Assembly (NCBI GenBank): GCA_038087875.1
Contig: CM075995.1
Span: 5,520,001 to 5,584,000 of the forward strand
DNA length: 64,000 bases
Source of the DNA: Malacoraja senta
Taxonomy: Eukaryota
Reading direction: 5' to 3'
In this document: positions 14,195 through 51,808 of the stretch, piece by piece
Position numbering within the stretch: position 1 is the stretch's first letter
Layout of the letters: each line of letters opens with the position of its first letter
The notes under the pieces: generated by a model
What the model saw: only the letters and a program-made list of their open reading frames with translations
Databases searched by the model: none
What the model was told of the DNA's origin: nothing
Program-made: the position numbers and the translations under genes

Positions 14195-14790
14195 CGGGTG
14201 GGCGAGGGGGACCAGAAGGGCAGTGGCTGGAATTGGTGATGCGATGGGGACTCACAGCGGGCGCTGGTCGTTCTCCGCCGGTATCGGAGTCTCCGCTTTC
14301 CGTTTGGCGACATCGGCAACATCTCTGACTCTGGGCTGGGTGTCCTGGGCTGGGCAGGGTCTCCGACGCTGGGCTGGGTCGGGTCTCCGATGCTGGGCTG
14401 GGTCTCCGGCGCTGAGTCTCCGATGCTGGGCTGCTTGAGGCTGGACTGCTTCGGGTCACTCCGAAAATTGTGTCTGGTTGGAAACCTCCGCCGGCCATCC
14501 TCAGCTCCAGTAAAGACGTGATTGGCGCAGGAAGGGGCGGACCATCCCGGTGAGTGACAGGGGAAGAGACTAATCTGCGCGGCGCTGAACGGCAGGTTTT
14601 AAAGATTTTTTTAAACATCGCTAACTTTTACGACATTCAACCGACATTCAACCGATCGGAATGAAACTTGGTGCTGTCGCAGCATAGGAGAACGGTGAGT
14701 GAACTGGTGAAAAATCGTAGCGCTATCACAAACCGTTTTTGTGCAAATAGAAAAACCGGAAGATAACAAGATCAGAGTTTTAGTTATGTA
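14195..14790 (-). mobile_element. Non-autonomous Helitron, 5' part only
   Basis: Minus-strand start tacataactaaaactctgatcttg resembles 5' ends at 29296 and 51698; directly follows another Helitron's CTAG. Confidence 0.6.
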
Positions 14791-15261
14791 CTAGACCAAG
14801 TGCAGACCCGTTGGGTCTGGTCCCCGAAAGTGCTTGACACCCCGGGGTGTTGTTCCCGAACGTGCTTCAGACCCCGGGATGAAAATCTGCTGAAAAAAAG
14901 ATGGCGTCATTTTCGGAAAAAATCGGAGAAAATCGGCGAACAAAAGATGGCGTCGTTTTCGGAGAAAATCGGAGAAAAAAAGATGGCGTCGTTTTCGGAG
15001 AAAATCGGAGACAATCGGGGAAAATCACATGGGGGTGGGGGGGGGGGGGGATGGATTTTATTTAAAAATGTATACATAAACAGGACCGAATTTAATCAGG
15101 AGTGGCTATTCGTAAAGATAAATGTCATCTCTTTGGAAATGGTAAAAAATATGGGCCTTTCCGCGCGCGCGCTGTGTGGGCCAGGGGCGGTATCAAAGGC
15201 AACGTACAGACGTACAGACGTACAGATGGACGACAGCCAGAGAATTTTAAAAGTATATAGA
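14791..15261 (-). mobile_element. Complete non-autonomous Helitron
   Basis: 5' TCTATATACTTTTAAAA; 3' hairpin CAGACCC-AAC-GGGTCTG then cacttggtCTAG; A|T flanks; (GATA)n adjacent at 15260-15290. Confidence 0.75.
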
Positions 15262-17374
15262 TAGATAGATAGATAGAGATAGAGATATATATGCACCACC
15301 TGTCTTAATGCAGACATTTCTTCTCCAGCCACTTAAATCTTTTTCCTCTTGCCTTAAACGTATGTCCTCTAATTCTGAACTGTTCTCCTCTTCCTTCCTC
15401 TGGCTTCACAATTTGCAACTCTTCTATCCTTGTCTCACAAGTTTCTGTCCTTTCATCTCTGGCCTTTGTCCAACCATCTGCCTATCAAAAAAACCCTTCA
15501 TGCTGTAAGATGGGTAACGTGTTTCTCAATCATTTTGCAGCCATACATTATATACACCCTTCTTGCTGATGGTTATGTTTGTGGGAGCCCAGGTATGCAA
15601 CTGCAGCTTTTTTTCCAAGTGCTACATACAGCAGCCACAGATTGCTGGTAGTTTCATGGAAATAATGTTTATGGTGGTGGATGGAGTGCCAATCAAGTGT
15701 GCTGTTTTGTCCAGAGTAATGTTTACCTCCTAGAGTGTTGCTGGCCTTGCATTCATCCAGGTAATTGGAGAATGCTTCACCATGCTTGTACTTTATTAAT
15801 GCAGAAAGACAGATGAGTTACTTGCCACAAGATACCAGCCTTGTACCTGTCCTTATGGTCACTGTATTTATATAGCTGATCCAGTTGAGTTTCTGATTGG
15901 TGGTGAACCTCAGGATGTTGTTGCTCTGAGGCTTGCTTTTGATAATGCCATTGAATAATAAACTTAGATCATTATATTTTATCTTGTTGGAGATTTTCCC
16001 ATGTCAAAGCATTAGCTTGATATTTTTACATCCAGACATGGACTGGCTCAGCTGCAAAAGAGTTGTGAATGTAATTGAATGTTTAGGCATCAATCCACAT
16101 CCCCATTTTAGACTTCAGAATGGAAGGAAAACCATTGATGAAGCAACTGAAATTGATGTCAAGGCTATTTACTTTTACATTGACTCTTGGGTTGGTGGTT
16201 GGGTTAGGGTCAGATTGTTCTTGCAACTCAAATTAGCATTTGTTATTTGCCATTAGCCGATTGTTGCTGAGCAAGTGTCGTTTGATATAATTATTGATGA
16301 TGACATCTGTCATTTTGCTGATGATTTTGAATAGACCGACGGGTGATACTTTGCCTCCTTAGAATTGCCATGCTTTTTATGAATAGTATATATCAAGGCA
16401 ATTTTCCTTGGCTGTGTTGGGTAGATGTCAGTGTAGCAGCTGTAGTGAAGCAACTGAAAGTGGACCAGCAGCTTTCTGTATCTTCAGTTTGGCAAATTAT
16501 ACAAACCTTTTTCTTTCAGTCTAAATGGGCTCATCTTTTTTATTTAATTCATTGCAAATTCCAAAGTCAGATGGGTTTTCTTATCTGATATGAAATACTA
16601 GCAAAAAGATTGAAAGATGTTTCTGGAAGAATGTAATCACCTGAACTAGTCCTAGTCCAAGGAATTAACCATATCTGGAAGTTGATTAACAATATTGTGC
16701 AGTACCTTGGGCAGCCAAGAATGATAGCTGGTATTCGGTCTTGTCCATTCCCATGGTGGCTCTATTGTTTCAGAGTAAACTTACATTTAAAATGGAGACA
16801 TACAAAATAAGTTTATTCTCCAGCACTTGAACACAAAATATTTTTTGCAAATGAATGCCATGCCATTTGGTGTTGACTTATCTTAATAATTCATTTAAAT
16901 TATTTTTACACATGACAGATTTTTGGTGCAACTTGAGTCAACTTTATAATGATGAACATGAAGCGGTCTTGCGTGCTCAGAAATTCTTCAAATGGATCTG
17001 ACTTGAAGATTGGAATTACCTGGTCACAAATGGCATGAATTGCCTTTATAATAAAGGAAAGGGAAAGTTAGCAGCTTGGGGATTTAAGTTCCTTTCCAGA
17101 TATGTAATTAAATAGTTTTGCCTGAGCTTCCAGTCCAGTAGTGAGGGAGGAATGCAGAATTGGGTGTAGTTTTTATATTCAATGTTGATTCAAGGCCCCA
17201 CCTGTCCTTGTGGATAAATATAAATGGCTCCATATTATCAGCATTTTCCATTTTTAATTTTAGACTCCTAGCATCTGTGTTTTCATTGATTGCTTCAGTT
17301 TTATCCCTCAACTTATTTACTAAAACTTGTTAGCTACTTAATTTATTATATTACAACTGAGAATGCCCTTCATT

Positions 17375-17740
17375 AGATTTAGATTTAGATTTAGATTTTA
17401 CTTATTGCCACATGTACCAATTAAGGTACCGTGAAATTCGAGTTATCATACAGCCATACTAAGTGGGGAAAAAATAGCAACAACACACACAGCCACATAA
17501 AATAAAATTCAACATAATGATCCATCACAGCGGCTCCCCACATTCTTCACTGTGATGGAAGGTAATAAAAGTCTAATCTTCTCCCTCTTTCTTCTCCGCG
17601 GTCGGGGCTGTCGAACCATCTGCATTCGGGACTATCAAAGCTCCCGCAGCCGGCGATCCAAGGCCCTCGTGTCGGGGTGATGAAACTCCCACGTCTAGTC
17701 AGTTGAAAGGCACCATGACTTGGAGCCCCGACTCAGTCTC
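17375..17740 (-). mobile_element. Truncated copy of a GC-rich non-coding retroposon related to 30586-31336 and 36235-37100
   Basis: (tttaga)n tail, shared ccatcacag...ctgtgatggaagg stem motif. Confidence 0.55.
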
Positions 17741-18279
17741 TAACCATATATATTTCTATCAGGTCACCCTGCAAGCTGCGGCCCATCCATGTACCTGTCA
17801 AATGTTTCTTAAATGTTGTGATAGTACTTGTCTCGACTACCTCCTTCGGCACCTCATTCCATACACCCATCGCCCTTTGTGTGAAAAAGTTACCCCTTAG
17901 GTTTAAGGTGAGTGGGGAAAGATTTAATAGGAACCTATGTTGACTAGTTCTCGATTCTACAACCCAATGGATTCAATGGTGCTTTATTTGTCACATGCCA
18001 CTGCACAGTGAAATTCTTTTTGCATATGTTACAGATGCAGGCGCTGCCATTATTGGCACCTTTACTCATAGTCCAAAGTCTGGTTGGCCTGCGCGCTTGA
18101 TGTACTGGAGCAGTTCCTGCAAACCGGCGTCCCTCTTCTCTCCTAGTCTGGCCATTTTTGTGTCCTAGGGGCATCTCCTGCAGCCTACCTTCAAGGTGCT
18201 GGAGGCATTACCTCAGTTCACCTCCTACTGGCCCACTCCTAGTGCCCGACGTCTCCAGCTCCCTCCCGGTCCCGCCATC

Positions 18280-18590
18280 CAACAAGCCTTTGGGCGGGTT
18301 CCCGGACCTGCCGACCAACGTGTCTTTGGGCAGACTGCGACAAGCCTTCGGGCGGGTTCCTGATCCTGCTGAGCCTTTGGGTGGGCTCTGACAAGCCTTT
18401 GAGTGTGTTCCCAGTTCCACTGACCGATGAGCCATCCGACAAGCCTTCATGCGGGCTCCCGGTCCTGCCTACTGATGAGCCTTCGTACAGGTTCCGAACT
18501 TCCAGATGAGCCTTCGGGTGAGTTCTTGCCAACCGACGAGCCTTCAGGCGAGGTCCTGCCGACCAAAAAACCTTTGGGTGGGCACCGTGG
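18280..18590. repeat. Degenerate GC-rich tandem repeat (core gagccttcgggcgggttcc, ~10 copies)
   Basis: Recurring (a/g)agccttYgggYggg motif at variable ~20-45 bp spacing. Confidence 0.65.
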
Positions 18591-18890
18591 CCTCAGGAAG
18601 GCCTCCGCCGCTCTCTAGTTGGTGATAGGATGGTTCAATTGCCTGATAACAGCATGATCACCTAAGCCAGGGCCTCACCGGGTGACTCCGGCCGCAAGAG
18701 CCACTTCACCGATCAGCGGGAAGCCAGCTCACAAACATCCCGAATTTCCTCTGCAGGAAACAGATGAAAATGTGCCATATTTGCTCGCACTTTTGTTCCT
18801 TTTTCATCAGAGAGCGACCGTGAGGCTCTGTGCAAGTGACTGTGCGACTACCCAATCTATTCCTCTCATATCCACTTCTCTCAGATCATC

Positions 18891-19055
18891 GGGTTTAAGA
18901 AGGAACTGCAGATGCTGGAAAATCAAAGGTAGACAAAAGTGCTGGAGAAACTCAGCGGGTGCAGCAGCATCTATGGAGCGAAGGAAATAGGCAACGTTGC
19001 CTATTTCCTTCACTCCATAGATGCTGCTGCACCCACTGAGTTTCTCCAGCACTTC
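18891..19055. mobile_element. Palindromic Penelope-derived insertion with 14-bp TSD
   Basis: Fold-back centred on ggcaac|gttgcc; tctctcagatcatc at 18877-18890 and 19056-19069. Confidence 0.8.
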
Positions 19056-20789
19056 TCTCTCAGATCATCCCTCATCCTCCTGTGCTCCAAGGAATAGAGT
19101 CCTAGCCTGCATAACCTCTCCCTATAACTCAGGCCCTCGAATCCTGGCAACATCCTCATGAATATTCTCTGCACCCTTTCTAGCTTGACAACATTTCCTA
19201 TAACATGGTGCTTGGAACAGAACATAATACTCTAAATGTGACCTCACCAATGTCTTGTATAACTGCAACATGACAACTTCTATACTCAATACTCTGGTCA
19301 ATATGCCAAAAGCCTTTTGTCCACCCTATCTACCTGTGGTGCCCCTTTCAAGGAAATATGTACCTGCACTTCTAAATCCCTCTGCTTTACAGCACTCACC
19401 AGAGCCCTACCATTCACGCTGTAGGTCCTGCCCGTGTTAGACTTTCCAAAATGCAACACCTCACATTTCTCTGTACTAAACTCCATCAACCATTCCTCAG
19501 GCCACCTGCCCAACCGATCAAGATCCTGCTGCAATTTTTGACAACCATCTTCACTATCCACAATACCACCCAGTTTAGTGTCATCCGCAAACTTGATAAC
19601 CATGCCATGTACTTTCTTATCCAAATCATTGGTCTGGATGACAAACAGCATTGAGGCCAGCACCGAACCCTGAGGCACACCACTGGTCACAGGCCTCTCG
19701 TCTGAAAAGCAACCTTCAACCATCACCTTCTGCTTCCTTCTATGAAACCAATTTTCTATCCATTCATCTATCTCTCCTTTGATCCCATGGGATCAAACCT
19801 CCAGAGTAACTTACCATGCTGAACCTTGCTGAATGCCTTGCTGAAATCCATTTATACAATGTCTACAGCTCTGCCTTCATCAACCTCTTTGGTCACATCA
19901 TCAAAAAACTCAATCAGATTCTTGAGACATGACCTCCCTCATACAAAACCATGCTGACTCTCCCTAAACAGTCCATATATATCCTATCCCTCATAATACT
20001 CTCTGGTAACTTTCCGACCACAGATGTTAAGCTCACTGGCCTGTAGTTCCCAGCCTTTTCCCTGCAGCCCTTCTTGAATAGATGCACGACATTTGGCACC
20101 CCCCCCCCCCCCCAGACCTCTGGCACCTCTCCTGTATTTAATTACGACTCGTATATCTCAGCAAGGGCTCCTGCAATCTCCTCGCTAGCTTCCCACAGTG
20201 TCCTCGGATATATCTGATCAGGCCTTCTAGTCAAGGCCTTTTGGATTAATGGTGTTACAATGCAATAAGGTTGTTCCTCTAGCCGGGAACCCTGCGGCCC
20301 AATACAGTAAAATAAAAGGCGTTTGAAAAGTAAACTCATAAATCATGACACTGTAGCTTTAACAAATAAATGCAGTCAGCTGACAAGAAGAATGACTGAC
20401 TTATCATGCAAAATCAGTTAGAGGATTGTTAAAAGCATTAAACAGTGGTATTGAAATTTAATGATAGGCACTAGTAGATATATCCTGTTATTTCTAATTT
20501 CCAGAAGCATGTTTAACTCATCAATATACTTTTGTGAACAGTTCTAATACACAGTGCATTCTAGAGTTGAATATTTACATTTTTACAAGATTAATATTAT
20601 TCATTGATTGTCTGTAAAAATATTTCCTGTGTATTCTGGTGTATCTATACTCCAGAAACAGACACAATTTGTAGAGTAATTTTACCGTTCACTAGCCCTG
20701 GGAATTGCATGCTTTTAATTACAAGAAATTATGACAGGAAATGTAATAGTATATTATACAATCTCTGTGACTTACTGACATTATTCTTA

Positions 20790-21172
20790 ATGAGGCTAAA
20801 AGGTAACCTTATTGAGGTTTATAAAATCATGAGGGCAATAGATAAGATGGAAGGTCACATTATTTTTCCCCAGTGTCGATGAGTTTAAAATTAGAGGACA
20901 TAGGTTTCCGGTGAAGGGGAAAGATTTAAAGAGGACTTGAGGGGTAGTCTTGTAACACTGTGAGTTGTGGATATATGGAACAAAGTGGCAGAGGAAGCTG
21001 TGCAGGCAGTTTACAACATTTAAAAGACATTTGAAAAGTTCATGGATCAGAAACCTTTAGTCGAATATGGGCCAAATGCAGACAAATAGGACTAGCTCAT
21101 CTAACCAACGTGGTTGGCGTGCACAGGTTGGGTCAAAGGGCCTGATTCTGTGCCATATATATCTGACTATGA
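20790..21172 (+). mobile_element. Old CR1 3' fragment
   Basis: RLKGNLIEVYKIM-like segment followed by CR1 3' UTR motifs. Confidence 0.7.
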
Positions 21173-21889
21173 TCTTTGGACTCAATCCTCAGTATAGACT
21201 AGTGTCTGTGACGTGGCCAGTATTATATTACAAATACAATTATCCTGTGAGCTCTGTTTCTTTGAACACACGTTCAGTTAGTCTAGGCTCTCAACCCCTC
21301 CTCCCCCCCCCCCCTCTTTCTTGACCTCCGACGTACACCTATTATACCGTCCAATGTCCCCTTCCACTCTATCCCTCCCACTGGCTTTACATTTCACTGC
21401 TCTTTTGAACATCTTTATCAACATCCTTTTGTCTTGTCTTTAGTCCTCTTTTGTCACCTTTTTGTCTCCTTTCCTTCTCTAGACTTTGATCGCCCATCTG
21501 CCAATCAAAAAATTATTCACCTATATCCAATATGACTTCCCAGGCTTTGTCCTGCCCTCACCTCTTTTCCAGCTTTCTCTCCCCACTACAATCTGTCTGA
21601 AGAAGGTTCCAACCCGAAAACATTGTGCATCCATGTCCTCCAGTAATACTGCTTTACCTGCTGAGTTACTCCCGCACTTTGTGTTAGAAGTAAAAAGGAG
21701 TCGCATATTTGACACAGTTTAACACTTTGAAAGGTAACTTTGGCCCTAATTGTTTTTTTTCTGGTTTGGACAGAGCAGCCAAGGCTGCAGATAAACCAGC
21801 ATATGTAGTTCATTCCCACACAGATAACCTTGTGGAGTTGGTGCAAAAACTGTAGAGCCAGGGCGTTCGATAAAAGATCAAATGATCTT

Positions 21890-22123
21890 TTGTGGAATTC
21901 CCTGCCATTTGTGGAATTCCCTGCCACAGAAGGCAGTGGAGGCCGTCACTGGATGGATTTAAGAGAGAGTTAGATAGAGCTCTAGGGGCTAGTGGAATCG
22001 AGGGATATGGGGAGAAGGCAGGCACGGGTTATTGATTGGGCACGATCAGCCATGATCACAATGAATGGCGGTGCTGGATCGAAGGGCCGAATGGCCTCCT
22101 GCACCTATTTTCTATGTTTCTAT
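21890..22123 (+). mobile_element. CR1 3' end fragment
   Basis: Closely matches the reverse complement of 7600-7825; ttctatgtttctatg tail; 5' 19-bp duplication. Confidence 0.85.
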
Positions 22124-24811: not shown

Positions 24812-25212
24812 GTATGACATTTTTCACAAAAATAGCTATCGATATTACTAAAAGTAAGATCTTGACCACTTCCTGTTTTTCTGTTTCATGATTTTTGAAA
24901 AAAACGCTGCCACTTACGGCTGCGATTTTTGGCCATCTTACTCAGTCCCCCTCCGCTGCTCATGACAAGAGGATTTTTCCCATCGATGAAAAATAAAAGT
25001 TATTAATGTTTTAAAAATGTTGACATTCTCTCTGCTGCCCCTGCTGGTGGGAGGGGGGAGGGACTATAAAACCCGGAAGTGTTGTGCCTCACTCCGTCTC
25101 TGCAAGATGCAGGAAGCGAGAGGGTCATGTCTCTCTGAGCTGTGAATAACACTGAACACATGTCTACTCAACTGTGAGTGCCCTTAATGTGGTTTGAAAA
25201 TGAAAATGTGGT

Positions 25213-28210
25213 TGCTTTGAAATGTTGCACTGCAAATGGTTGTTGGTGGTGGTAACTGCTTTGAAATGCTGCACCGCAAATGGTTGGTGGTGGTGGCAAC
25301 AGCTTTGAAATGCTGCACCGCAAATGGTTGGTGGTGGTGGTAACTGCTTTGAAATGCTGCACCGCAAATGGTTTTTGGTGGTGGCAACTGCTTTGAAATG
25401 CTGCACCGTAAATGGTTGTTGGTGGTGGCAACAGCTTTGAAATGCTGCACTGCAAATGGTTGTTGGTGGTGGCAACTGCTTTGAAATGCTGCACCGCAAA
25501 TGGTTGTTGGTGGTGGCAACTGCTTTGAAATGCTGCACAGCAAATGGTTGTTGGTAGTGGCAACTGCTTTGAAATGCTGCACCGCAAGTGGTTGTTGGTG
25601 GTGGCAACTGCTTTGAAATGCTGCACAGCAAATGGTTGTTGGTGGTGGCAACTGCTTTGAAATGCTGCACCGCAAATGGTTGTTGATGGTGGCAACTGCT
25701 TTGAAATGCTGCACCGCAAATGGTTGTTGGTGGTAGCAACTGCTTTGAAATGCTGCATCGCAAATGGTTGTTGGTGGTGGCAACTGCATATGGTTGTTGG
25801 TGGTGGCAACTGCTTTGAAATGCTGCACTGCAAATGGTTGTTGGTGGTGGCAACTGCTTTGAAATGCTGCACTGCAAATGGTTGTTGGTGGTGGTAACTG
25901 CTTTGAAATGCTGCACTGCAAATGGTTGTTGGTGGTGATAACTGCTTTGAAATGCTGCACTGCAAATGGTTGTTGGTGGTGGCAACTGCTTTGAAATGCT
26001 GCACCGCAAATGGTTGTTGGTGGTGGCAACTGCTTTGAAATGCTGCACAGCAAATGGTTGTTGGTAGTGGCAACTGCTTTGAAATGCTGCACCGCAAATG
26101 GTTGTTGGTGGTAGCAACTGCTTTGAAATGCTGCATCGCAAATGGTTGTTGGTGGTGGCAACTGCATATGGTTGTTGGTGGTGGCAACTGCTTTGAAATG
26201 CTGCACTGCAAATGGTTGTTGGTGGTGGCAACTGCTTTGAAATGCTGCACTGCAAATGGTTGTTGGTGGTGGTAACTGCTTTGAAATGCTGCACTGCAAA
26301 TGGTTGTTGGTGGTGATAACTGCTTTGAAATGCTGCACTGCAAATGGTTGTTGGTGGTGGCAACTGCTTTGAAATGCTGCACCGCAAATGGTTGTTGGTG
26401 GTGGCAACTGCTTTGAAATGCTGCACAGCAAATGGTTGTTGGTAGTGGCAACTGCTTTGAAATGCTGCACCGCAAGTGGTTGTTGGTGGTGGCAACTGCT
26501 TTGAAATGCTGCACAGCAAATGGTTGTTGGTGGTGGCAACTGCTTTGAAATGCTGCACCGCAAATGGTTGTTGATGGTGGCAACTGCTTTGAAATGCTGC
26601 ACCGCAAATGGTTGTTGGTGGTAGCAACTGCTTTGAAATGCTGCATCGCAAATGGTTGTTGGTGGTGGCAACTGCATATGGTTGTTGGTGGTGGCAACTG
26701 CTTTGAAATGCTGCACTGCAAATGGTTGTTGGTGGTGGCAACTGCTTTGAAATGCTGCACTGCAAATGGTTGTTGGTGGTGGTAACTGCTTTGAAATGCT
26801 GCACTGCAAATGGTTGTTGGTGGTGATAACTGCTTTGAAATGCTGCACTGCAAATGGTTGTTGGTGGTGGTAACTGCTTTGAAATGCTGCACCGCAAATG
26901 GTTGGTGGTGGTGGCAACAGCTTTGAAATGCTGCACCGCAAATGGTTGTTGGTGGTGGTAACTGCTTTGAAATGCTGCACTGCAAATGGTTTTTGGTGGT
27001 GGCAACTGCTTTGAAATGCTGCACCGTAAATGGTTGTTGGTGGTGGCAACAGCTTTGAAAAGCTGCACTGCAAATGGTTGTTGGTGGTGGCAACTGCTTT
27101 GAAATGCTGCACCGCAAATGGTTGTTGGTGGTGGCAACTGCTTTGAAATGCTGCACAGCAAATGGTTGTTGGTAGTGGCAACTGCTTTGAAATGCTGCAC
27201 CGCAAGTGGTTGTTGGTGGTGGCAACTGCTTTGAAATGCTGCACAGCAAATGGTTGTTGGTGGTGGCAACTGCTTTGAAATGCTGCACCGCAAATGGTTG
27301 TTGGTGGTGGCAACTGCTTTGAAATGCTGCACCGCCAATGGTTAATGGTTGTTGGTGGTAGCAACTGCTTTGAAATGCTGCATCGCAAATGGTTGTTGGT
27401 GGTGGCAACTGCATATGGTTGTTGGTGGTGGCAACTGCTTTGAAATGCTGCACTGCAAATGGTTGTTGGTGGTGGCAACTGCTTTGAAATGCTGCACTGC
27501 AAATGGTTGTTGGTGGTGGTAACTGCTTTGAAATGCTGCACTGCAAATGGTTGTTGGTGGTGATAACTGCTTTGAAATGCTGCACTGCAAATGGTTGTTG
27601 GTGGTGGCAACTGCTTTGAAATGCTGCACCGCAAATGGTTGTTGGTGGTGGCAACTGCTTTGAAATGCTGCACCGCAAATGGTTGTTGGTGGTGGCAACT
27701 GCTTTGAAATGCTGCACAGCAAATGGTTGTTGGTAGTGGCAACTGCTTTGAAATGCTGCACTGCAAGTGGTTGTTGGTGGTGGCAACTGCTTTGAAATGC
27801 TGCACAGCAAATGGTTGTTGGTGGTGGCAACTGCTTTGAAATGCTGCACCGCAAATGATTGTTGATGGTGGCAACTGTTTTGAAATGCTGCACCGCAAAT
27901 GGTTGTTGGTGGTAGCAACTGCTTTGAAATGCTGCACCGCAAATGGTTGTTGGTGGTGGCAACTGCATATGGTTGTTGGTGGTGGCAACTGCTTTGAAAT
28001 GCTGCACTGCAAATGGTTGTTGGTGGTGGCAACTGCTTTGAAATGCTGCACTGCAAATGGTTGTTGGTGGTGGTAACTGCTTTGAAATGCTGCACTGCAA
28101 ATGGTTGTTGGTGGTGATAACTGCTTTGAAATGCTGCACTGCAAATGGTTATTGGTGGTGGTAACTGCTTTGAAATGCTGCACTGCAAATGGTTGTTGGT
28201 GGTGGTAACT
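25213..28210. repeat. 44-bp satellite array, ~70 units
   Basis: Unit gcaactgctttgaaatgctgcaccgcaaatggttgttggtggtg with few variants; five 26-bp deletion units. Confidence 0.97.
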
Positions 28211-28595
28211 TGACAACTTCCTGTTTGCACTGGATATTGATTTTAGATAAAACGCTACTACTTACGGCTGTGATTTTTGGCCATCTTACTCAGTCCCCCT
28301 CCGCTCATCAGGTGCAGAGGATTCCTCCCATCAATGAAAAATAAAAGTGTTATTAGTGTTTAAAAAAATGTTGAGAATCTCTCTCCTTTCAATCACGCCA
28401 CGAAGGCCAAGCCTCTTCCAGTGGAAGGGGGGAGGGATTATAAAACCCGGAAGTGTGGGTGTGGCTCGGTCTCTGCAAGATGGGGGAGGGAGAGGTCACG
28501 GCTCTGTCTGAGCTGTGAATCAACGGAACACACAATGTCTACTGAAATGTGAGTGTGGTGTTTTGTGTGGTTTTATGGTGGTTTTATGGTGGTTT

Positions 28596-28995
28596 CACCC
28601 TGCTTATGGTATGAAACTGCATTTGAATGTGGTTGCCTTGCACCCTGCATGAAATGGTATGAAACTGCACTTGAGTTTGGTGGCCCTGCACCCTGCTTGA
28701 AGTGATAGGAAACTGCACTTGAATTCAGTGGCCTTGCACCCTGTTTGAAGTGGTCGGAAACTGCACTTGAATTCGGTGGCCTTGCACCCTGCTTAAAGTG
28801 ATAGGAAACTGCACTTGAATTCGGCAGCCTTGCACCCTGCTTGAAGTGGTAGGAAACTGCACCTGAATTTGGTGGCCTTGCACCCTGTTTGAAGAGGTAA
28901 GAAACTCCACTTGAATTTGGTGGCCTTGCACCCTGCTTGAAAGGGTAGGAAACTGCATTTGAATTTGGTGGCCTTGCACCCTGTTTGAAATGGAA
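28596..28995. repeat. 48-bp minisatellite, ~8 units
   Basis: Unit gaaactgcacttgaattcggtggccttgcaccctgcttgaagtggtag; gives 16-aa periodicity in ORF 28573-29106. Confidence 0.93.
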
Positions 28996-29289
28996 TTTCA
29001 AGGAATAGCTGTGAGTCAACTGCTCGCCCACCAGCCGTGAGTGAGCTGCCAGCACATCAGGCTTGAGTGACTGAGCTGTCACCCCAAGAATCCATTTGGC
29101 CAACAATGTCCATACTAGCCTTCTGGAAACCAGTCCCTTCAGCCCACAATACCCATACTAGCGCTCCAGAAATCCCCCCCCCCCCCCCACTGGCCACCAA
29201 TATTGGAATTGGCGGAGAGGTGGAATATTGTGTTGGGGGACCAGCCCTCCTGTGTGAACATGGGACCCAACGGGTCCCACTTGGTCTAG

Positions 29290-30385
29290 TCTGTATCTAT
29301 AAATTACTAAAACTCTCATCTTGTTTGTTTGTGTGCGTGCATGGATGTGATTTCCCAAAACCCCCCCAAAACGGTACACGATAGCGCTACAATTGTTGGC
29401 CACCTTACTCGCCATTGTCCTGGGATGTATATGAAACAAGTTTTGTTCGGATTGATGGTATATTTTATAAGTTATTGACATTTTAAACTTTACAAAAATC
29501 ACTTTTCAAACCACTATTCCACTTGCCCTGCCCGTCAGCCACGTTACAAGATGTCACAATGACAAGGGAGGGGAAAATGGGGGAGGGGAGAGGGAGGGGA
29601 AGTGAGGTGGGGAAGGGGGGAATAGAGGGAGAGGAGGGGGAAGTGGAGATAGAGGGCGAGGAGGGCAGTGGGGGGGGTGAGGAGAGAGAGTGGAGGAATG
29701 GGGGTGGTGAGGAGTGGGGGAGCAGGGGGATAGAGGAGAGTGGTTATGTAGGGAGGGAGTGACTGAGGGTAGGGGAAAGGAGAGGGAGGGGTGGAGGAGA
29801 TGGGAAAGAAGACTGAGGGTGAAGAGAAGGGGAGGGAGTGCTGGGGATGAGGGGGAATGGAGGAGGATAGGGGTAGGAAGAGGGATGGCGAGGCGCAGTT
29901 AGGGGAGGGTTGCCGTGACTCGCGTCACAAAGGGGATCTCTGGTGTCACAACGGGAACCCCTCGGCCTGCGCAGTTGGGGGCTATGGAACAGCGGTGGAA
30001 TATTGCTTTGGGGGACTCTCATCTTGTTTGTTTGCATGGATATGTGTGATATTCCAAAACCCCGGCAAAATGGTACATGATAACGCTACAAGTTTTGGCC
30101 CACCTTTCTCACCATTGTCCTGGGATGTAAAATAAACAAGTTTTGTTCGGATTGATGTTATATTTTACAAGTTATTAACATTTTAAACTTTACAAAAAAT
30201 ACTTTTCAAACCACTTTTCCACTTGCCCTGCCTGTCAGCCACGTTCAACGTTACAATGGGATCCCGAATCTCATTTTCATAACGATTTTCAAAAAAACTT
30301 TTAAATCAAGTTCTTCCATTTTCATTAACAGCTAACATTGTGTTTAGGTTATTTTAAATAAAATTCGCGATTTTCATTATGGGGG
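29290..30385 (+). mobile_element. Second Helitron with internal duplication, running into the gap
   Basis: 5' tctataaattactaaaactctcatcttg; 29312-29560 repeated at 30015-30260; purine-rich middle. Confidence 0.65.
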
Positions 30386-30585
30386 NNNNNNNNNNNNNNN
30401 NNNNNNNNNNNNNNNNNNNNNNNNNNNNNNNNNNNNNNNNNNNNNNNNNNNNNNNNNNNNNNNNNNNNNNNNNNNNNNNNNNNNNNNNNNNNNNNNNNNN
30501 NNNNNNNNNNNNNNNNNNNNNNNNNNNNNNNNNNNNNNNNNNNNNNNNNNNNNNNNNNNNNNNNNNNNNNNNNNNNNNNNNNNNN
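30386..30585. other. Assembly gap, 200 N
   Basis: Run of exactly 200 N. Confidence 1.
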
Positions 30586-42169: not shown

Positions 42170-43837
42170 CTTGTTCCTTAATTATAACCTCCAGGCCGAC
42201 AGAATCTTTCTTCCAACCGCCGGCCGGACTATTACGTTCTTCCGTTTTTACCCTCAGTCCAAGTTCCTCGCAGCGAAAAAAAACCAAGCAAAGAACTGGA
42301 AATTGCTTAATATAACAAATAGTTCAATTGAGAAATCGGACTACCTGAAAAATTTGACTTCGCCGATAAAGCAAGTCGAGATCCTCCCCCCAGTGTTATA
42401 AAACGGGGCTTTTTTTTTTGCAGCTGATTTTTCAAGCATCATAATGTCACATCGAGATTAATGGGCAATAAATTTAATTGCCGTCACGAGGATTATATTG
42501 GTGGTTTGGAAATGTTGCCGTTCACGCTGCCTTATTAACTATTCGATGAAAGTTGCAATGAGGGAAGATCTGTCATCTGTAATTTATTCAAGTGCTTATA
42601 CTTTACTCCCAGAATGATTGAGAATGACATGGGCTTAGTTTTTGACTGCCAGCTTCTGAACAATAGGCCGGAGGTGTATTCTGCTCTTGAACATTACAAA
42701 CACCAAATATACTACAACCTGCCTTGGATGCACCAGAGATCACGAGCTTTTGTTTGCACTAACATTAGTTTTTTTTAAAAATGTTATTGAACTTTCTTTT
42801 GTTTATTGTGTTATCTGTAATTACTGTGATTAGATCATAAGATCATAAGTGATAGGAGTAGAATTAGGCCATTGGGCCCATCAAGTCTACTCCGCCATTC
42901 AATCATGGCTGATCTATCTCTCCCTCCTAACCCCATTCTCCTGCTTTCTCCCCATAACCTCTGACACCCGTATTAATCAATTAGAGATCTGTTATGCTGC
43001 TGCAAGTAAGAATTTCATTGTTCCATTTTTGGTACATATGACAATTAAACACTCTTGACTGGAGGACACAAAGTGCTGGAGCAACACAGTGGGTCAGGCA
43101 GCATCTCCAGAGAACATGGACAGGTGTCATTTTGGGTCAGGCCCTTGTTTCTACAAGCATTCTTGATGTTGAAGTGGACACTGTTCTCTCTACCCACTCA
43201 AGCTCAAGAGTGTACACATTGAGGGGAGGCGAAATATTGCCATGTATTCTGAAAAGGTCAGCCTATTCCAACATAAGGACCGACTCCCCCCCAATGCAGT
43301 CATGAGTCTACGTTGCAGTGATAGAAATGAGTAACTCTGTCCAATGAGATGTTAAATTTAGGCTTGGTCAGACTCTAAAGATGAATGCACGCATCCCAGG
43401 ATATCATCTGAAGAGCAGCAGTGGAGTCCTTATCTGGTTGATATCTAAACCTGTCCTATCCATGCATCTCTCTAAATGTTTCTTAAACGTTTGCAATAGT
43501 CCCTGTCTCAACTATCTCCTCTGGCAGCTCATTCCATACACCCACCACCCTTTGTGTCCTGATAATTAACTCAATTAAAAGAGAAATATTCCTTTAAACT
43601 TCTCCATCTCTCGTAAACATCTAAGAAGATTCCAGGTGCTTTGGCCCAAAGTTCAGCCTGATATCAGCCTGATATACAGTGTTGAGGTGCTATCTTTCCA
43701 ACGCGATGGTGGACATGAATGATTCCAAGGCAATGTTTGAAAAAAATCATTCAAGAATTCCCTGGGTCCCTGATAAATAATTCTCTCTTCAGCAGTGTCT
43801 AAATCAGATTTACTGCTCATATATTTCATTGTGTTTC

Positions 43838-43992
43838 AGAAAGAACTGCAGATGCTGGTTTAAACCGAAGATAGACACAAAAAGCTTGAGTAACTCAGCG
43901 GGACAGGCAGCATCTCTGGAGAGAAGGAATGGGTGACGTTTCGGGTCCCGCTGCCTGCCCCGCTGAGTTACTCCAGCTTTTTGTGTCTATCT
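43838..43992. mobile_element. Palindromic Penelope-derived insertion with 15-bp TSD
   Basis: tcatatatttcattg at 43817-43831 and 43993-44007. Confidence 0.8.
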
Positions 43993-44045
43993 TCATATAT
44001 TTCATTGCTGTTTGTGGATTGGGGTGGTGGGAAAATGGCTACTGC

Positions 44046-44310
44046 ATGGAGGAGCAGCACCTCATATTCCGCGGGCCGTCTGCACCCCAGCGGCTTGAAT
44101 ATTGATTTCTCCAATTTCCGGTAGCCCTTGCTGTCTCCTCCCCTTCTCAGCTCTCCCTCAGCCCTCTGGCTTCTCCTCTTCCTTTCTTCTTCCTGCCCCG
44201 CCCCATCCTACATCAGTCTGAAGATGGGTTTTGGCCTGAAACGTTGCCTATTTCCTCGCTCCATAGATGCTGCCTCACCCGCTGAGTTTCTCCAGCACTT
44301 TTGTCTACCA
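44046..44310 (+). mobile_element. Penelope-like element 3' end
   Basis: MEEQHLIF...LHPSGLNIDFSNFR* followed by a hammerhead-like tail. Confidence 0.8.
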
Positions 44311-45297
44311 CTGCTTTTAACATTCCAGCATTGCATTTAACGAGATACTTTCGTAGTGTTAAAATACTTTGGGGCATCTTTAATGAAGAAAGATGCTACA
44401 TCAATTCAAATCACTCCCTTTTTCTGGAGAGTCCACCTCTGTACTCTCACAAAAGCTACGTGACTGGTGACGTTCAGAAATGCAGAATGTCTTCTTTTAC
44501 CCGACGTAGCAACAGTACAATAACTTTCAATGTGAATTCTTCCGCTCTGTTAATTCAATTCAAAACATTATTTGGCACTTTTCGCAGCAAGGTATAATGC
44601 TTCTACTTTAACCAATTCATAATCTTTGTATTGTTCCTCGATTATCTCCATGCTGCAGTTTGGCACACTCCAGATTCCCCAATGATAAGTGGAATATACA
44701 GAGACTTGAAGGCACAGTTTAAATTAAACAGATCATTAGTGTGAGAGGCAGTGAAAGGGATACCAAGGAATACTAACTGCATCAAATGCCTTGTAGTTGA
44801 CCCGAAATGTCAGCTGTCCGTGTTCTCCAGAGATGCTGCCTGACCTGCTGATTTACTCCAGCACTTTGATATAAGATTCCAAGCATCTGCAGTTCCATAA
44901 GTCTCTCTCTGTATTTTTGATACAGGGGTAATTTAGTCGCGAAATTAAAATTTGTAGCTGAACCACCAAATTGATAATAAAGCAAGGATGAGCTACTTGG
45001 CTGCACGTTATTTGGTCTTTCACATGATAAATATCCATATAATGGCTTATCTGCCTTTAAAATTCAACATACTAAACGAATAAAATAGTTAAATTAGAGT
45101 AGTTATCAAACATCAGCGAGAAGAAATCCTGTAACCTCTCTAAACAATAATTAGATCCTTGGGGAAATGAACAAACAAGCAGTGGATTTAAACCTAATTG
45201 TTTGTGATTTTATACCTTTCAGTGTCATGTTTTCATGAGGATATACCATCTTGCATTAAAGAAGAGCAATCTCTGGGAGCACAGAATACAAAAATCT

Positions 45298-45830
45298 GGG
45301 GTGGCACAGTGGCACAACTGGTAGAACTGCAGCCCCACTGTGCCAGAGGGCTGGGTTCTACCCTGACCTTTGGGAGTGTGGAGTTTGCACGTGCTCTCTG
45401 TGGCCGCGTGAGTTTCCTCCGGGAGATCTAGTTAACCCCCATGTCTCAAAGACATGTGGGTTTGTCAATTAACTGGCCATTGTAAATTGCTCCCAGTGTG
45501 TGGGGAGTGGAGGCGAAAATGGGATAACAAAGGACTATTAGCTTAGTTTAGTTTAGTGTAGAGATTCAGCATGGAAACAGACACTTCGGCCCGCTGGGTC
45601 CACGCCAACCAACAATCACCTGTACACTACACACTAGGGGCAATTTTTACATAGGCCTATTATCCTAGAAACCTGCACATGTTTGGAGTGTGGGAAGAAA
45701 CCGGAGCAAACCCACGCGGTCACAGGGAGAACGTGCAAACTCCATACAGATTGAGCGCGTAGTCAGGACCGAACCTGGGTCTCTGGCGCTGTAAGGCAGC
45801 AACTCTACCGCTGCGCCACTGTGCCGCCCA
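45298..45830. mobile_element. Two HE1-like SINEs tail to tail (45298-45535 plus, 45543-45829 minus)
   Basis: tRNA-like heads at both outer ends; (tttag)n tail. Confidence 0.8.
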
Positions 45831-46755
45831 CATTGAAAACGGGTGATCGCTGGCCGCCGTTAACTTGGTGGGTTGAAGGACCTGTTTCCGTGCTGTATCT
45901 TTCAATCCAGTTTAAAAAGCATCTTCCTCCACAAACTGATTTGTGTCAATTAAAGGTCCGTTCAACACCTGATTGAAACTGCCTCGTCTCACATCTACGT
46001 GTTTTCACATAATCTCGAGAAAAGGTGTTTTAGGTAATTCCTCGCAACTTCCCTGAATTCCACCACAATTGATTACACCCCATTTGCACTTTTAAAAATC
46101 AAGAGCATTGTTTCTTATTTCACACCAACTGTTCTTTTTACTATGGAAACCATTAGCTCCTGTGATACTAAAGCTCAGACTTAACGGGCTGGTGAATGCT
46201 GCTCTAAACTGTTAGCAGATATCTTTGGAGTGATGAATTCAGAAAGCAGATTTCTTTGGCGTAAGTAACAATAAACCCTAAAAATGGCAGGAAGCAGCAA
46301 ACTATCTGAGAATGCCATTACGCATATGTGACTGTTATATGCTCGTTATATTTCTCTATAACCAAGAATTTTCCTACACCAATGATTTTCGTTTGTGTTT
46401 TATTTTTAGCATCTCTGCTCAAGTTCATGTTTATTGTCATATGAATGAGCACGGTGAGGCGCAGATACAATGAAATATCTTGCTTTCTGCATCATCACAG
46501 GCAAACACACAAAAAACAAATCATACATAAATGGCACAAAATTCTAAATGAAAGAAGACTACGCAAAAAAAAGCAAAAATGCCCTTCCCTCTCTTCCCAG
46601 AATCAGAAGAACATTTCCCTTGTGCCTACCTCCCCCTTCCAATATCTCTACATTCACTGATCACCTCCACAATTTGCAGACTGGGCAGGCTTTCACTTCG
46701 GGTTGATCTGGTTCACTCCTCCACCTCCACCAAAATTTACTCTTCTTCCACATTA

Positions 46756-47044
46756 GGACGGCACGCTGTAGAGTTGAGTTGCTGCCTCACAGCGCCAGAG
46801 ACCCGGGTTCGATCCTGACTACCGGTGCTGTGTGTACGGAGTTTGTACATTCTCCCCGTGACCGCATGAGTTTTCTCTGGGTGCTCCGGTTTCCTCCCAC
46901 TCCTCAAAGACATGCAGGTTTGTAAGCTAATTGGCTTGGCATAATTGTAAAATTGTCCCTAGTGTGAGTAGGATAGTGCTGGTCCGCGTGGACTCGGTGG
47001 GTTGATGTGCATGTTTCCGTGCTGCATCTCTAAACTAAACTAAA
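46756..47044 (+). mobile_element. HE1/V-SINE-like tRNA SINE
   Basis: ggttcgatcc B box, central domain, ctctaaactaaactaaa tail. Confidence 0.85.
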
Positions 47045-47207
47045 GAAATTCCTCATAGACACAAAATGCTGGAGCAACTCAGCGGGACAGGCAGCATCCC
47101 TGGAGAGAAGGAATGGGTGACGTTTCAGGTCGAGACCCTTCTTCAGACTCAAACCGAAACGTCACCCATTCCTTGTCTCTAGAGATGTTGCCTATCCCGT
47201 TGAGTTA

Positions 47208-47862
47208 TAGGTGCAAGAGTAGGCCATTCGGCCCTTCGAGCCAGCACTGCCATTCACTGTGATCATGGCTGATCATCCCCAATCAGTACCCTGTTCCTGC
47301 CTTCTCCCCATATCCACCGACTCCGCTATCTTTAAGAGCCCTATCTAGCTCTCTCTTGAAAGTATCCAGAGAACCGACCTCCACCGCCCTCTGAGGCAGA
47401 GAATGCCACAGACTCACAACTCTGTGTGAAAAAGTGTGTCCTCATCTCCGTTCTAAATGGCTTACCCCTTATTCTTAAACTGTGGCCCCCGGTTCTGGAC
47501 TCGCCCAACATCGGGAACATGTTTCCTGCCTCTAGCGTGTCCAAACCCTTAATAATCCTATATGTTTCAATAAGATCCCCTCTCATCCATCTAAACTCCA
47601 GAGTATACAAGCCCAGCCGCTCCTTTCTCTCAGCATATGGCAGTCCCGCCATCCCGGGAATGAACCTTGTAAACTTATGCTGCACTCCCTCAATAGCAAG
47701 AATGTCCTTCCTCAAATTAGGGGACCAAAACTGCACACAATACACCAGGTGTGGTCTCACTCGGGCCCTGTACAACTGCAGAAGGATCTCTTTGCTCTTA
47801 TACTCAACTCCTCTGGTTATGAAGGCCAACATGCCATTCGCTTTCTTCACTGCCTGCTGTAC
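47208..47862 (-). mobile_element. CR1 LINE 3' fragment nested in a Penelope-derived fold-back (47057-47908)
   Basis: Minus ORF KKANGMLAFITRGVEYKSKEILLQLYRARVRPHLVYCVQFWSP. Confidence 0.9.
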
Positions 47863-48789
47863 CTATCTTGTGTCTATCTTCGATTTAAACCAGCATCTGC
47901 AGTTCTTTACTATATAAATTCCTCCTCAGATAGACACCTCTCTCAATAGTCAATTCCTCATCATCTCCATTCTAAGGGTACGTCCTTTTATTCTGAGGCT
48001 GTGGCCCTCTGGGCCTAGACTCTTCCACTACTGGAAACATCTACTCCACATCTACTTAATGTCGGGCTTTCAATCAATGCCATTCAATGGGTGAGTAATG
48101 GGTGCTTTTATCATTTTACATTTGTAGCTTGTTCTTTGCTCAGCAGCATGCACTTTCTGACTCATGGCCTCTTTAACACCTGCCAGATGGTAGGCTATCA
48201 GATGTGATGATTCCACAGATGGACAGGCTGCTAAGAGTGGAAATCATGAGCAATAATTTCTTGCTCTCCTCCATCATCCCTCAAACAGGATCTGCCCAAC
48301 CAGCTGTTCCCTCCCAGTCCATGCTGTCCCACAGAAGTAACCTCATGTTGCTGTAGTCCATTTGAAAACAGGAGTATTTCTTCTATCTGTAAATACTTGA
48401 CATTATTTTTTAATGGATTCTTTTCTTTGGGTGATGGTAAACTGTTTTTTTTTCCCGGTGGAAAAATTACCTTGGAAGTTGAAACTATGAGATTGTGATC
48501 AAACAATGTTATGCTAACTTTCTTGAAATTAGTTAAAGTAATTCCATATAGTTTCAGGCAGCATTTCTGGACCCTTCTTTAGACTGATTGAGCATAGGTC
48601 TGATCAGTCAGAAGACGGGTCCCAACCAAAAACGTCACCTATCCACGATCTCCAGGGATGCTCTCTGACCCGCTGAGTTAGTCCATCACTTTGTGTCTTT
48701 TCTTTGTGTCTTTGTGTCATTCAGTTTGTTTGGGAAACACTTGGAGGATATTGGCGATGATCCAACTTTGGATATGATGACCGTTTGTC

Positions 48790-49195
48790 TGCACTGGGCC
48801 TGTACTAGCTGGAGTTTAGAAGGATGAGGGGGTACCTCATTGAAACTTACCGAAAAGTGAAAGGCCCAGAGAGGATGTTTCTAATAGTGGGAGAGTCTAC
48901 TAGGCAATAGCATCGGAATAAAAGAACATACCTTTAGAAAGGAGATGAAGAGGAATTTCTTTAGTCAGAGGATGGTGAATCTGTGGAATTCATTGCCGCA
49001 GTCGGCTGTGGAGGCCAAGTCATTAGGTATTTTTAAGGCGCAGATTTACAGATTCATGATTAGTAAGGGTGTCAGGAGTTATGGGGAGAAGGCAAGAAAA
49101 TGAGGTTAAGATGGAAAGATAGATCAGCCAAGATTGAATGGTGGAGTGGACTTGATGCGTCGAATGGCCTAATTCTACTCCTATAACTTATGAAA
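48790..49195 (+). mobile_element. CR1 3' fragment
   Basis: LGLY.LEFRRMRG and FFSQRMVNLWNSLP-like segments with 3' UTR. Confidence 0.8.
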
Positions 49196-49304
49196 CTGGG
49201 GGAGACGAAGCAGTGTCAGATCCTGGGAAGAATTTGGGACATAAAGGTAGGAAGAGTCGCGAACAATGTATGTGTGTGCAGGAAGGAACTGTGTGTAGGA
49301 AGAA

Positions 49305-49560
49305 ACAGGCGACAACCTACGTCATCCTGGCGACAACCTACGACAGCACCTACGTCAGGAGAAGTCAAGCTACGCTCATTGGCGTCAATCCCACTGTCGC
49401 CGAAAAATTGTCAACATGTTGAAAATTTAGCGGCGACCAGAAATACAATACGACTTTTTGCGCGACTGAGGAGACTACTCCCGGCGACCACTGGTGAATG
49501 TGTGGCGACAAACTAGTCGCCTGTGGTTGCCTAAAAAATCGCCTAAGTGGGACAGGCCCA
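49305..49560. mobile_element. Partial Harbinger-like MITE, right end only
   Basis: Ends aagtgggacaggccc, similar to the 33338 element terminus; internal (acctacg)n. Confidence 0.55.
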
Positions 49561-49971
49561 TTAAGGAGTTTGTTTCCTTCGTAGCGAAAAGGGATTACTC
49601 ATCAATTGTGTACTATATATTTTTTGAAATGATTTGCAATGATTAGTTGTTAAATATGTTGGCACTGTTTAAATCTTTCATAAATTTGGTCTAATTTCCA
49701 ATATGTGGATTTTTACATGCCCAATACCCATGAGATTCTCAGAAAGCCCTGTTTGTTGACAGCACAAGGTAAATCAGCAACAACATTTTAGTGAAGTAGA
49801 TACAAGGAAAAAGGAAGATGCTGGTTTACAAAAAAAAAACAAAATGCTAGAGTAACTCAGCTGGTCTGAGAGCATCTCTATAGAACATGGGCAGGTGAAG
49901 TTTTGGGTCGGGAGCCTTCTTTAGACTGATTGTAGTGGGGTGGGGAAGAAAGCTGGAAATCTTTATAATCC

Positions 49972-50742
49972 CTTAATAATAATAATAATAATAATAATAT
50001 ATTTTATAGTCATTGCACGTCAGTGCAACGAGATTTAGTATGCAGCTCCACCGTTGTACAAGAAAAGTAAAATAAATAAATAAGCAAGCAAGCTGAGTGA
50101 CGTGACCATCCGAGGGAGACTGTCCAGGGGGGGTGGGTGGGGGGGCACTCAGCAGGGCCGGTTCAGAGCCGCTATAGCTCTTGGAATAAAGCTGTTTCTG
50201 AGTCTGGAGGTTCGGGCGTAGAAGGCCTTGTAACGTCTGCCGGAGGGAAGTAGTTCAAGCAGTCCATTACAAGGGTGTGATGAGTCCTTATGGATGCTGA
50301 CGGCCTTCCTGAGGCACCGTGTGTGGTAGATGCCCTCCAAGACTGGTAGCTCTGTCCCAATGATCCTCTGCGCTCTGTGGACGACGCGCTGAAGAGCTCT
50401 CCTCTCTGCCTCCGTGCAGCTGATATACCACACAGAGATGCCATACGTTAATATGCTCGCTGTGGTGCAGCGGTAGAACGTTGTCAGCAGCTGTTGGGGC
50501 AGACCAGTCTTTTTTAATGTCCTCAGGAAGAACAGTCGTTGCTGTGCCTTCTTGACCAGCGCAGCGGTGTTGGTGGACCATGTGAGGTCCTCTGAAATGT
50601 GAGTGCCAAAAACTTAAAGCTGGACACTCTCTCCACACTTTCCCCGTAAATGGAGATTGGGGGGTATTCTCCATTATGGGACCTCCTGAAGTCAATAATC
50701 AGCTCCTTGGTCTTGGAGGTGTTTAGTGACAAGTTGTTATGG
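49972..50742 (-). mobile_element. Rex1/Babar-like LINE 3' fragment
   Basis: Minus ORFs SLNTSKTKELIIDFRR...VERVSSFKFL and LQRVVHRAQRIIG...LLPSGRRYKAFYARTSRLRNSFIPRAI; (aat)n tail. Confidence 0.85.
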
Positions 50743-50845
50743 TAAGAGAGAGGGAGAGGGTTTTGCAGTTACCTAAAATTGGAATTATTGCTACATTGTA
50801 AATTAAATTTCGTTGTTGCAGACTTTTTAGATAGAAATATCTATA

Positions 50846-51697
50846 TCTATATACTTTTTAAACTGTGTGTTTGTGTGTGTGGGTGTATGTCATTTTGATT
50901 TTGCCTTTGATTTTTTTGATTTTGCATTTGATTCGTTACTCCGCGAAAACCAATCGCAAAAACGCCGAGATTTTTAGCATTTCGCTAGCGATTTTACTTT
51001 TACATCGCACATCCACTCCTTGCTCAATTAATTCCCCAGATTTTGAGTTAAATTGATCACAAAACTCAAACAAGACTCAATTTTTAAAATCTAAACGGCT
51101 CTTACCAGCTGCTGACGTCACAATGCCCAAATGCCGACCAATCCAAGCTGCTTCTCTCTCTCTCTTCATTTGGCAGCCCAGCTCTCCTCCACTCCCCCCC
51201 CCCCCCCCCCCCGGCTTCAAGTACACTCGCACCATGCCTCCCCCATCTGGACTCCTACGCCCGCTCAAAACCCCCGCTCGCTCAGAGCCGCCCACGCGCT
51301 CAGCTGCTGCCCGGCTCTCCTCCACTTCCCTACCCCCCCGGCCCGACTCTGTCACGCTGGTGGAAGCCACAGATCGGCTGTTCCCCAGCTGCTTTTCGCC
51401 GTCCTCGCTGGCGGCCCGCAGGCTCACTCGGGATCACGCCCGCCCGCCCACTCCACCCTCCCCCCCTCCTCCCCCGTACTCGGGGTTTGAAGCGCCGAGG
51501 ATGCCCTACCCCTCTCCTCCCTCCCTTCTTAATATATCAATGGGGGTGGTTAGTGTGTGTGTGTGTGAGGGGTTGGTCGTGTGTGTGTGTGTGTCTGAGT
51601 GTGTGTGAGAGGTTGGTTAGTGTGTGTGACGCCTCAGGCCGCCCCCTCCCCTCGCAACCGCGCGTTGCGGGAACAGACGGGTCTGCACTTGGTCTAG
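50846..51697 (+). mobile_element. Complete non-autonomous Helitron
   Basis: A|TCTATATACTTTTTAAA 5' end; cagacgggtctgcacttggtCTAG|T 3' end matching the 14791 element. Confidence 0.75.
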
Positions 51698-51727
51698 TAT
51701 ATTACTAAAACTCTCATCTTGTTTGTT

Positions 51728-51808
<81 letters not shown>

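Follow-up and report, generated by a model that had tools for sequence, protein, structure and literature searches.

Do the Helitrons of one family insert by preference into the 5′ ends of their own relatives? The question is raised by a 64-kb stretch of the Malacoraja senta genome (contig CM075995.1, positions 5,520,001 to 5,584,000; hereafter the window), which was the scope of the analysis and had been picked for its tandem pattern of Helitron ends. The window holds eight non-coding Helitron elements, all of them in three same-strand stacks of two, four, and two copies: locus 1 (minus strand) reads A1 then B1; locus 2, spanning ∼24838 to 30240, reads A2a, A2b, B2a, B2b, a four-element extent that the original prediction had missed; and locus 3 reads A3 then B3. 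No solitary copy was detected in the window, where nhmmer profiles made from the element ends recovered the input loci only (next match, E 0.076). The stacks are a real feature: they consist of non-autonomous HLE1 elements and arose, at least in part, through insertion into 5′ ends of the same family.

Each of the three intact Helitron 3′ ends in the window adjoins the 5′ motif of a further member of its end-family, specifically CTAG|TACATAACTAAAACTCTGATCTTG at J1 (G at 14791, minus strand), CTAG|TCTGTATCTATAAATTACTAAAACTCTCATCTTG at J2 (G at 29289, plus strand), and CTAG|TATATTACTAAAACTCTCATCTTG at J3 (G at 51697, plus strand), and the strings and coordinates originally given for them were correct. 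A scan with CACTTGGTCTAG (≤2 mismatches) returned eight matches, the three exact ones being the three junctions, each followed by a same-strand motif of the type ..ACTAAAACTCT.ATCTTG; the fourth match (52464-52475) falls at the decayed terminus of B3, and four more were not counted as element ends. A perfect GC-rich stem lies upstream of only 3 of 487 CTRR|T sites, namely J1, J2, and the J2 palindrome on the opposite strand, so the hairpin-CTAG end predicted for all three junctions stands for J1 and J2, but the J3 hairpin is short by 5 nt (hairpin z −1.9, −2.9, and +0.2 for J1, J2, and J3). J1 and J3 share their register, 21 nt upstream, and ∼24 nt downstream, and both read CTAG|TA, within a 5′ end; J2 reads CTAG|TC, an exact joint of different subfamilies. 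The upstream partners are unlike inside, as had been claimed: the blastn match between A1 and A3 is limited to the last 21 nt, and their 5′ ends give a weak local alignment (69% over 164 nt). Directly external to these two elements, TCTA ends at 15262 outside A1 and TCTATA at 50845 outside A3. A B-type 5′ region of ∼200 nt is common to six elements (three behind an intact CTAG, two behind an eroded junction, and one free), and A1 and A3, both outermost in their stacks, carry a second 5′ type (TATACTTTTAAAA).

Comparison of the termini with the HLE1 and HLE2 definitions in the accessible text of PMC11417382 (statements from the literature refer throughout to accessible portions of the cited sources) identified the elements as non-autonomous and of HLE1 type, in agreement with the Helitron ends first proposed. 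The 5′ TC terminus is present in A1, A3, and B2a, which start with TCT, and in B1-type elements of related species, which start with TCTA; it is worn in A2a and lost in A2b and B2b. The 3′ CTRR with a short hairpin ∼10-12 nt upstream is best preserved in A1 and A2b (perfect 7-8-bp stems), shortened in A3, and decayed in B3. An A precedes the 5′ end and a T follows the 3′ end in A1, A3, and B3, and the loose flanks of the relatives likewise start with T. HLE2 elements (Helitron2/Helentron/HINE) were rejected as a match, the longest exact inverted match of the first 60 nt to the last 100 nt being 5 nt in A1 and <5 nt in A3 and B3, with ends at CTAG|T and A|TC in place of T|T insertion and T-run ends. 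A coding function was rejected as well: none of the 49 frames of at least 55 aa (minisatellite 25213-28208 left out) matched Helitron, Rep, or Pif1 families, and three gave weak unrelated matches below the cut-off. Pattern scans for the 3′ end found none in metagenome_contigs, none in viral_contigs, and one in genome_contigs, and a scan for the 5′ motif found six metagenome loci; all seven were dropped as chance, the flanking element sequence being absent.

Contigs of related species were compared with locus 1. Four of 24 runs were placed on 14200-15385 at 80% likeness, comprising contig sets from three organisms (X1, X15, and X17, with 10541, 16288, and 9416 records placed) and a raw-read run (X22, nine reads); the results listed comprised 18 of 1661 loose-end rows, 15 of 279 joints, and 24 of 36766 pieces. 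The 24 runs came from a search with window positions 50300-51730 and had shares ≤0.34, and these shares were not used as evidence because that stretch includes a LINE-like (long interspersed nuclear element) piece. The family is multi-copy and interspersed with sharp ends, being found in 9416-16288 contigs per run in three of the four runs; loose ends accumulate at either terminus. All three contig sets contain B1-type bodies, and among the rows listed, 139 (X1) and 156 (X17) contigs depart from the locus at 14790, their consensus reading ATCTATCTA before TACATAACT in element orientation. ATCTATCTA|TACATAACT is therefore the normal B1-type start, and A1 interrupts that start at A|T, so that the 5′ end restored in the original prediction by removing the upstream element agrees with the usual start of the family. 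No empty orthologous site skipping A1 occurs among the 15 joints listed of 279. The last 35 nt of A1 are joined to B-type subterminal sequence in 105, 156, and 125 contigs of the three sets (at 14825), and thus A and B types share one terminus; many unrelated non-coding interiors have spread between the common ends of a single HLE1 end-family, as is observed for the ends themselves.

It is highly improbable, given these data, that the downstream motif is an internal segment or belongs to another type of element rather than being a Helitron 5′ end. The collection pattern scans found no autonomous partner, and no downstream element of the window retains an intact 3′ end, both of which would suit such a misparse; however, similarity among the relatives ends sharply at TCTA with unique DNA beyond, B-type subterminal sequence runs into the same hairpin-CTAG terminus, and A2b combines the B-type 5′ region with an intact terminus. 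A variable (TCTA)n run is also seen at the 5′ ends (15262-15285), with at least two units in the relatives' consensus, and its growth could reflect serial self-insertion or slippage.

An inherited structure, in which one or a few composites, rolling-circle concatemers, or tandem duplications later had their interiors swapped or eroded, is rather unlikely as an account of the intact junctions. The common register and flanking sequence of J1 and J3 fit it, and Helitron tandem arrays and composite transposition are known (PMC5876387, PMC9248874, PMC4224331); yet unlike interiors are joined at all three intact junctions, B1-type elements usually stand behind TCTA and unique DNA, and the TCTA missing from the interrupted start is found beyond A1 and A3, where insertion would place it. 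The A1 interior is deep in X15 alone, where it is deeper than B1, and has no coverage over 14880-14999 in X1 and X17. A1 is thus confined to a lineage and independent of B1, and the pair is not an obligate composite. Partners are also shuffled, a check proposed with the original prediction: B2a and B3 are 80% alike yet stand behind the unrelated A2b and A3, in registers 10 nt apart. A rolling-circle concatemer array was rejected for J1-J3, where partners share end motifs only, but may fit A2a|A2b and B2a|B2b. These two junctions, between same-subfamily copies (84 and 88% alike), are deletions with 2-nt microhomology that took the end of one copy and ∼17-25 nt of the next; for them, two of the five junctions in all, an inherited origin is likely, perhaps by tandem duplication long ago. 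At the eroded junctions (28209 and 30015) the resumption points lie less than ∼10 nt apart in the downstream 5′ end, just before or within ..ATCTTG, perhaps a site where breakage or truncation is favored.

Whether generic targeting would suffice was assessed by taking the eight family termini of the window as targets, or alternatively 24 usable sites. With eight termini, the chance of three junctions in three was ∼6e-10 over all 9452 AT sites and ∼1e-7 over 1748 AT-rich sites, rising to 3e-4 over 115 sites with AAA at +10..12 and 1e-2 over 35 sites with AAAA at +10..13. When 24 usable sites were taken instead, the same four nulls gave 2e-8, 3e-6, 9e-3, and 0.3. Plain AT richness fails to explain the pattern, whereas motif preference largely can. 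That there is no special bias at all, the stacks reflecting AT-rich targeting, the density of A|T steps in (TCTA)n, survival where repeats abound, and selection of this window among many, is given little credence. In its favor, CTAG runs into other AT-rich DNA in 66 (X1, at 14789) and 80 (X17, at 14790) contigs among the rows listed, the junction targets are 15-16/20 AT, and an AT-rich bias is known for Helraiser (PMC4778049); opposed to it, besides the AT-rich null, are the common strand at all junctions and a similar junction in a related species. That junction is in X1 record 8 (14665-14802), one of the 24 listed pieces, which comes from a species without the A1 interior and joins a B1-type body to CACTTGGTCTAG, although 16 gap letters make its register unsure. 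Eight listed pieces reach the B1 5′ tip: besides this record, which continues through CACTTGGTCTAG, one starts at 14794, one matches to 14793 and then differs, two enter other DNA, and three stop there. Depth arithmetic on the junction bins gave an excess on the B 5′ tip of 2.6-3.3-fold in X1 and X17 and 0.9-1.2 in X15. Since many of the relatives' 3′ ends enter other flanks, stacking is not obligatory, and the preference is partial.

The flanks themselves may point to a more specific target. Past CTAG, in element orientation, both listed rows (X1, n = 66; X17, n = 80) have a consensus, read by hand, of TTTT at +5..8 followed by AAAA at +9..12, and pairs of same-size sets drawn from AT-rich sites of the window agreed over those eight letters in 0.26-0.46% of 5000 draws. 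The family's own 5′ ends have a T/A-rich stretch followed by AAAA at +10..13, and the termini (TCTA)n-TAYATWACTAAAA and TATACTTTTAAAA carry the T-run/A-run pattern on the same strand. The favored explanation, held as somewhat more likely than not, is that the transposase prefers targets resembling its left end, with stacking as the consequence. An autonomous RepHel partner would mobilize the elements; its transposase would insert at A|T and, as the two flank consensuses suggest, also read ∼13 nt of target lying 3′ of the cut, favoring a T-rich run and then an A-run at ∼+9 to +13. Binding of target DNA by the enzyme surface that binds the left end is the likely reason. Because the family's own 5′ termini carry this pattern, a resident 5′ end would be a better-than-average target, which a newcomer would enter at the A|T step in the same orientation, leaving TCTA(TA) outside; repeated rounds would yield head-to-tail stacks of different subfamilies, a move starting at the outer TCTA would also make the (TCTA)n run longer, and many copies would still land elsewhere, the bias being partial.

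A left-end-like preference agrees with the stacking of 3/3 intact 3′ ends and 8/8 elements on one strand within each stack, and with the AT-rich preference of Helraiser within ∼20 bp of the insertion site, strongest on the 3′ side (PMC4778049). It is unlikely that stacking arises instead by active homing, that is, by joining an incoming circle to a RepHel-bound or nicked resident left end through the circle-closing strand transfer, with targets chosen beyond sequence preference. Homing would suit the exact CTAG|TC joint between subfamilies at J2, which resembles the circle junctions of Helraiser, the stacking of all eight elements, and the 3/3 count, which is still improbable (3e-4 to 1e-2) under the eight-site motif nulls, but J1 and J3 lie inside the 5′ end, away from the TC nick site, solitary-looking flanks carry the same motif, and the accessible account of Helraiser reports no local hopping in 701 events (PMC4778049). 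The preference for the family's own 5′ end that was originally proposed is partly supported by the same-strand stacks and the A|T step inside the 5′ start, but as a partial bias, described more simply as a left-end-like target motif than as homing. A bolder version is possible, though held tentatively, in which a true extended target copying the family's left end, or homing on transposase-bound left ends, directs a sizeable share of insertions into resident 5′ termini as a self-made safe harbor, building mixed stacks and composites, with (TCTA)n gaining one unit per round.

Several observations weigh against a left-end-like preference. De novo Helraiser insertions are described without clustering at donor sites (PMC4778049), and Helitrons are described as having no preference for unique sequences (PMC8788227). 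The motif consists of two plurality consensuses with an agreement of 0.44-0.45, was spotted after the fact, and may derive in part from junctions to other subfamilies' 5′ ends rather than from ordinary flanks; its A-run is shifted by one place from that of the family's own ends. J2 (CTAG|TCTG..) lies outside the motif register and the matching site, 29300, is empty, which counts against a pure motif model. Support comes from one window and the relatives' contigs, and as the window was picked for this pattern, all the p values overstate the case. Finally, depth arithmetic cannot separate junctions from other B subfamilies, and its excess vanishes in X15.

Maize Helitrons reportedly favor insertion near or inside other Helitrons, as is said to have been found by Yang and Bennetzen. 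Their clustering, nesting, and multiple termini have been linked to composite elements (PMC3288121), a regional or internal preference, whereas placement here is at the base level within the 5′ terminus. A close likeness is to Helibat/Helraiser HLE1 elements, which have a 5′ TC, a 3′ hairpin followed by CTAG, and A|T insertion without visible target duplication, an insertion mode that is probable here too (PMC4778049, PMC11417382), and Helraiser shares the AT-rich bias, mostly on the 3′ side, and the CTAG|TC head-to-tail joint of its circles (PMC4778049). Unlike in Helraiser, the joints here lie between different subfamilies, in many cases a few bases into the 5′ end, and the flanks suggest a left-end-like positional motif where the Helraiser text (logo figure excluded) gives general AT richness only. 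In Fusarium oxysporum, one FoHeli copy is inserted 2 bp upstream of another's 5′ end (PMC5148889), and multiple or duplicated 5′ termini are ascribed to self-insertion; three tandem copies in Metarhizium possibly arose via 5′-end insertion (PMC5148889, PMC13342296). FoHeli is thus alike in self-insertion at or near the 5′ end but is Helitron2-like with inverted repeats, its duplications are 31-85 nt, and the accessible text proposes no left-end-like target motif. Rolling-circle tandem Helitron arrays (PMC5876387), including Helitron-1_DPe (PMC9248874), are likewise head-to-tail on one strand and may explain A2a|A2b and B2a|B2b; however, concatemers repeat one element, while J1-J3 join unlike elements. 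Target preference also builds oriented stacks in Drosophila, where tandem transposable element dimers arise from insertion-site preference (PMC5932611), though for elements with target duplications and in a text that leaves Helitrons unmentioned, and for Paramecium Helitrons, proposed to target telomeric repeats (PMC13085455) rather than their own end. The accessible portions of PMC4683698, PMC7492417, and PMC10288648 contain nothing on self-targeting, and no description of a left-end-like target motif, or of such stacks in cartilaginous fish, was found in mainly open literature, figures and supplements aside. Helitron self-insertion therefore has precedent; likeness to the target at the base level is the new and unproven part.

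Target choice by Helitrons has been described as limited to a dinucleotide in AT-rich DNA (PMC4778049, PMC11417382, PMC8788227), and a left-end-like preference, if true, would be a sharper target choice than is usually assumed. A 13-nt strand-specific preference mirroring the left end would show how RepHel captures its target and would place a single cause behind mixed tandem stacks, multiple termini, and (TCTA)n heads of variable length. It would bear on the steering of Helitron-based insertion tools and lends itself to direct testing in assemblies from this group of animals and in Helraiser-type assays. For annotation, such stacks are easily mistaken for single long elements. The elements and their parts are listed in Table 1.

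Table 1. Helitron elements, terminal hairpins, and external 5′ remnants in the window, in order of position.
Feature	Position	Strand	Description
B1 downstream element	14197..14790	-	Start TACATAACTAAAACTCTGATCTTG; 3′ end lost; adjoins putative Tc1-like fragment
A1 non-autonomous Helitron	14791..15261	-	5′ TCTATATACTTTTAAAA; internal 8/36/46-bp repeats; 3′ hairpin-CTAG
A1 3′ hairpin	14803..14819	-	7-bp stem, 3-nt loop, 12 nt from end
(TCTA/TCTCTA)n run outside A1	15262..15285	-	Remnant of B1 5′ tip and/or extra A1 5′ units; boundary ambiguous
A2a B-type element	24838..28208	+	5′ end free, worn (..GATATTACTAAAAGTAAGATCTTG); 44-bp minisatellite; 3′ end lost
A2b	28209..29289	+	84% like A2a over 330 nt; ∼25 nt of 5′ end gone; 48-bp minisatellite; hairpin-CTAG intact
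A2b 3′ hairpin	29261..29279	+	8-bp stem
B2a	29290..30016	+	Full 5′ end TCTGTATCTATAAATTACTAAAA immediately past CTAG; stops within 3′ subterminal region
B2b	30015..30240	+	88% like B2a over 225 nt; first ∼17 nt missing; junction with 2-nt microhomology
TCTATA outside A3	50840..50845	+	Remnant of B3 5′ tip, or extra A3 5′ unit
A3 non-autonomous Helitron	50846..51697	+	5′ TCTATATACTTTTTAAA; shortened hairpin; end CACTTGGTCTAG
B3	51698..52475	+	Start TATATTACTAAAACTCTCATCTTG; (TG)38 at 51732-51807; decayed 3′ end CACTTGATCTAA, then T

The minisatellites of A2a (44 bp, 25213-28210, ∼3 kb) and A2b (48 bp × 8.4, 28596-28993) both hold TGAA...CTGCAC-like words in their units and may be related. A 200-N assembly gap (30386-30585) comes after the four-element stack, which may extend into it, and the 3′ subterminal segment of B3 is doubled in tandem (profile matches 52337-52390 and 52384-52495). 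Directly past B1 lies a fragment (∼13150-14196, minus strand) that, from its translated motif, we take to be Tc1/mariner-like; the B1 3′ end was probably removed by deletion.

More widely, GC content is 36-52% across 2-kb bins, and short interspersed repeats and LINE-like fragments crowd the window. Open frames at 7698-8159, 10681-11232, 19298-19792, 47341-47862, and 50149-50613 are presumably pieces of LINE reverse transcriptases of several kinds. The short interspersed nuclear elements (SINEs) of the window suggest cartilaginous-fish DNA. A SINE-like repeat of ∼90 nt occurs at 5591-5679 and in more than 20 other places, often as inverted pairs (e.g., 52683-52840 and 60483-60672), and an inverted repeat of 236 nt, 96% identical, at 59288-59523 and 59963-60196, ∼440 nt apart, looks far younger than the other repeats.

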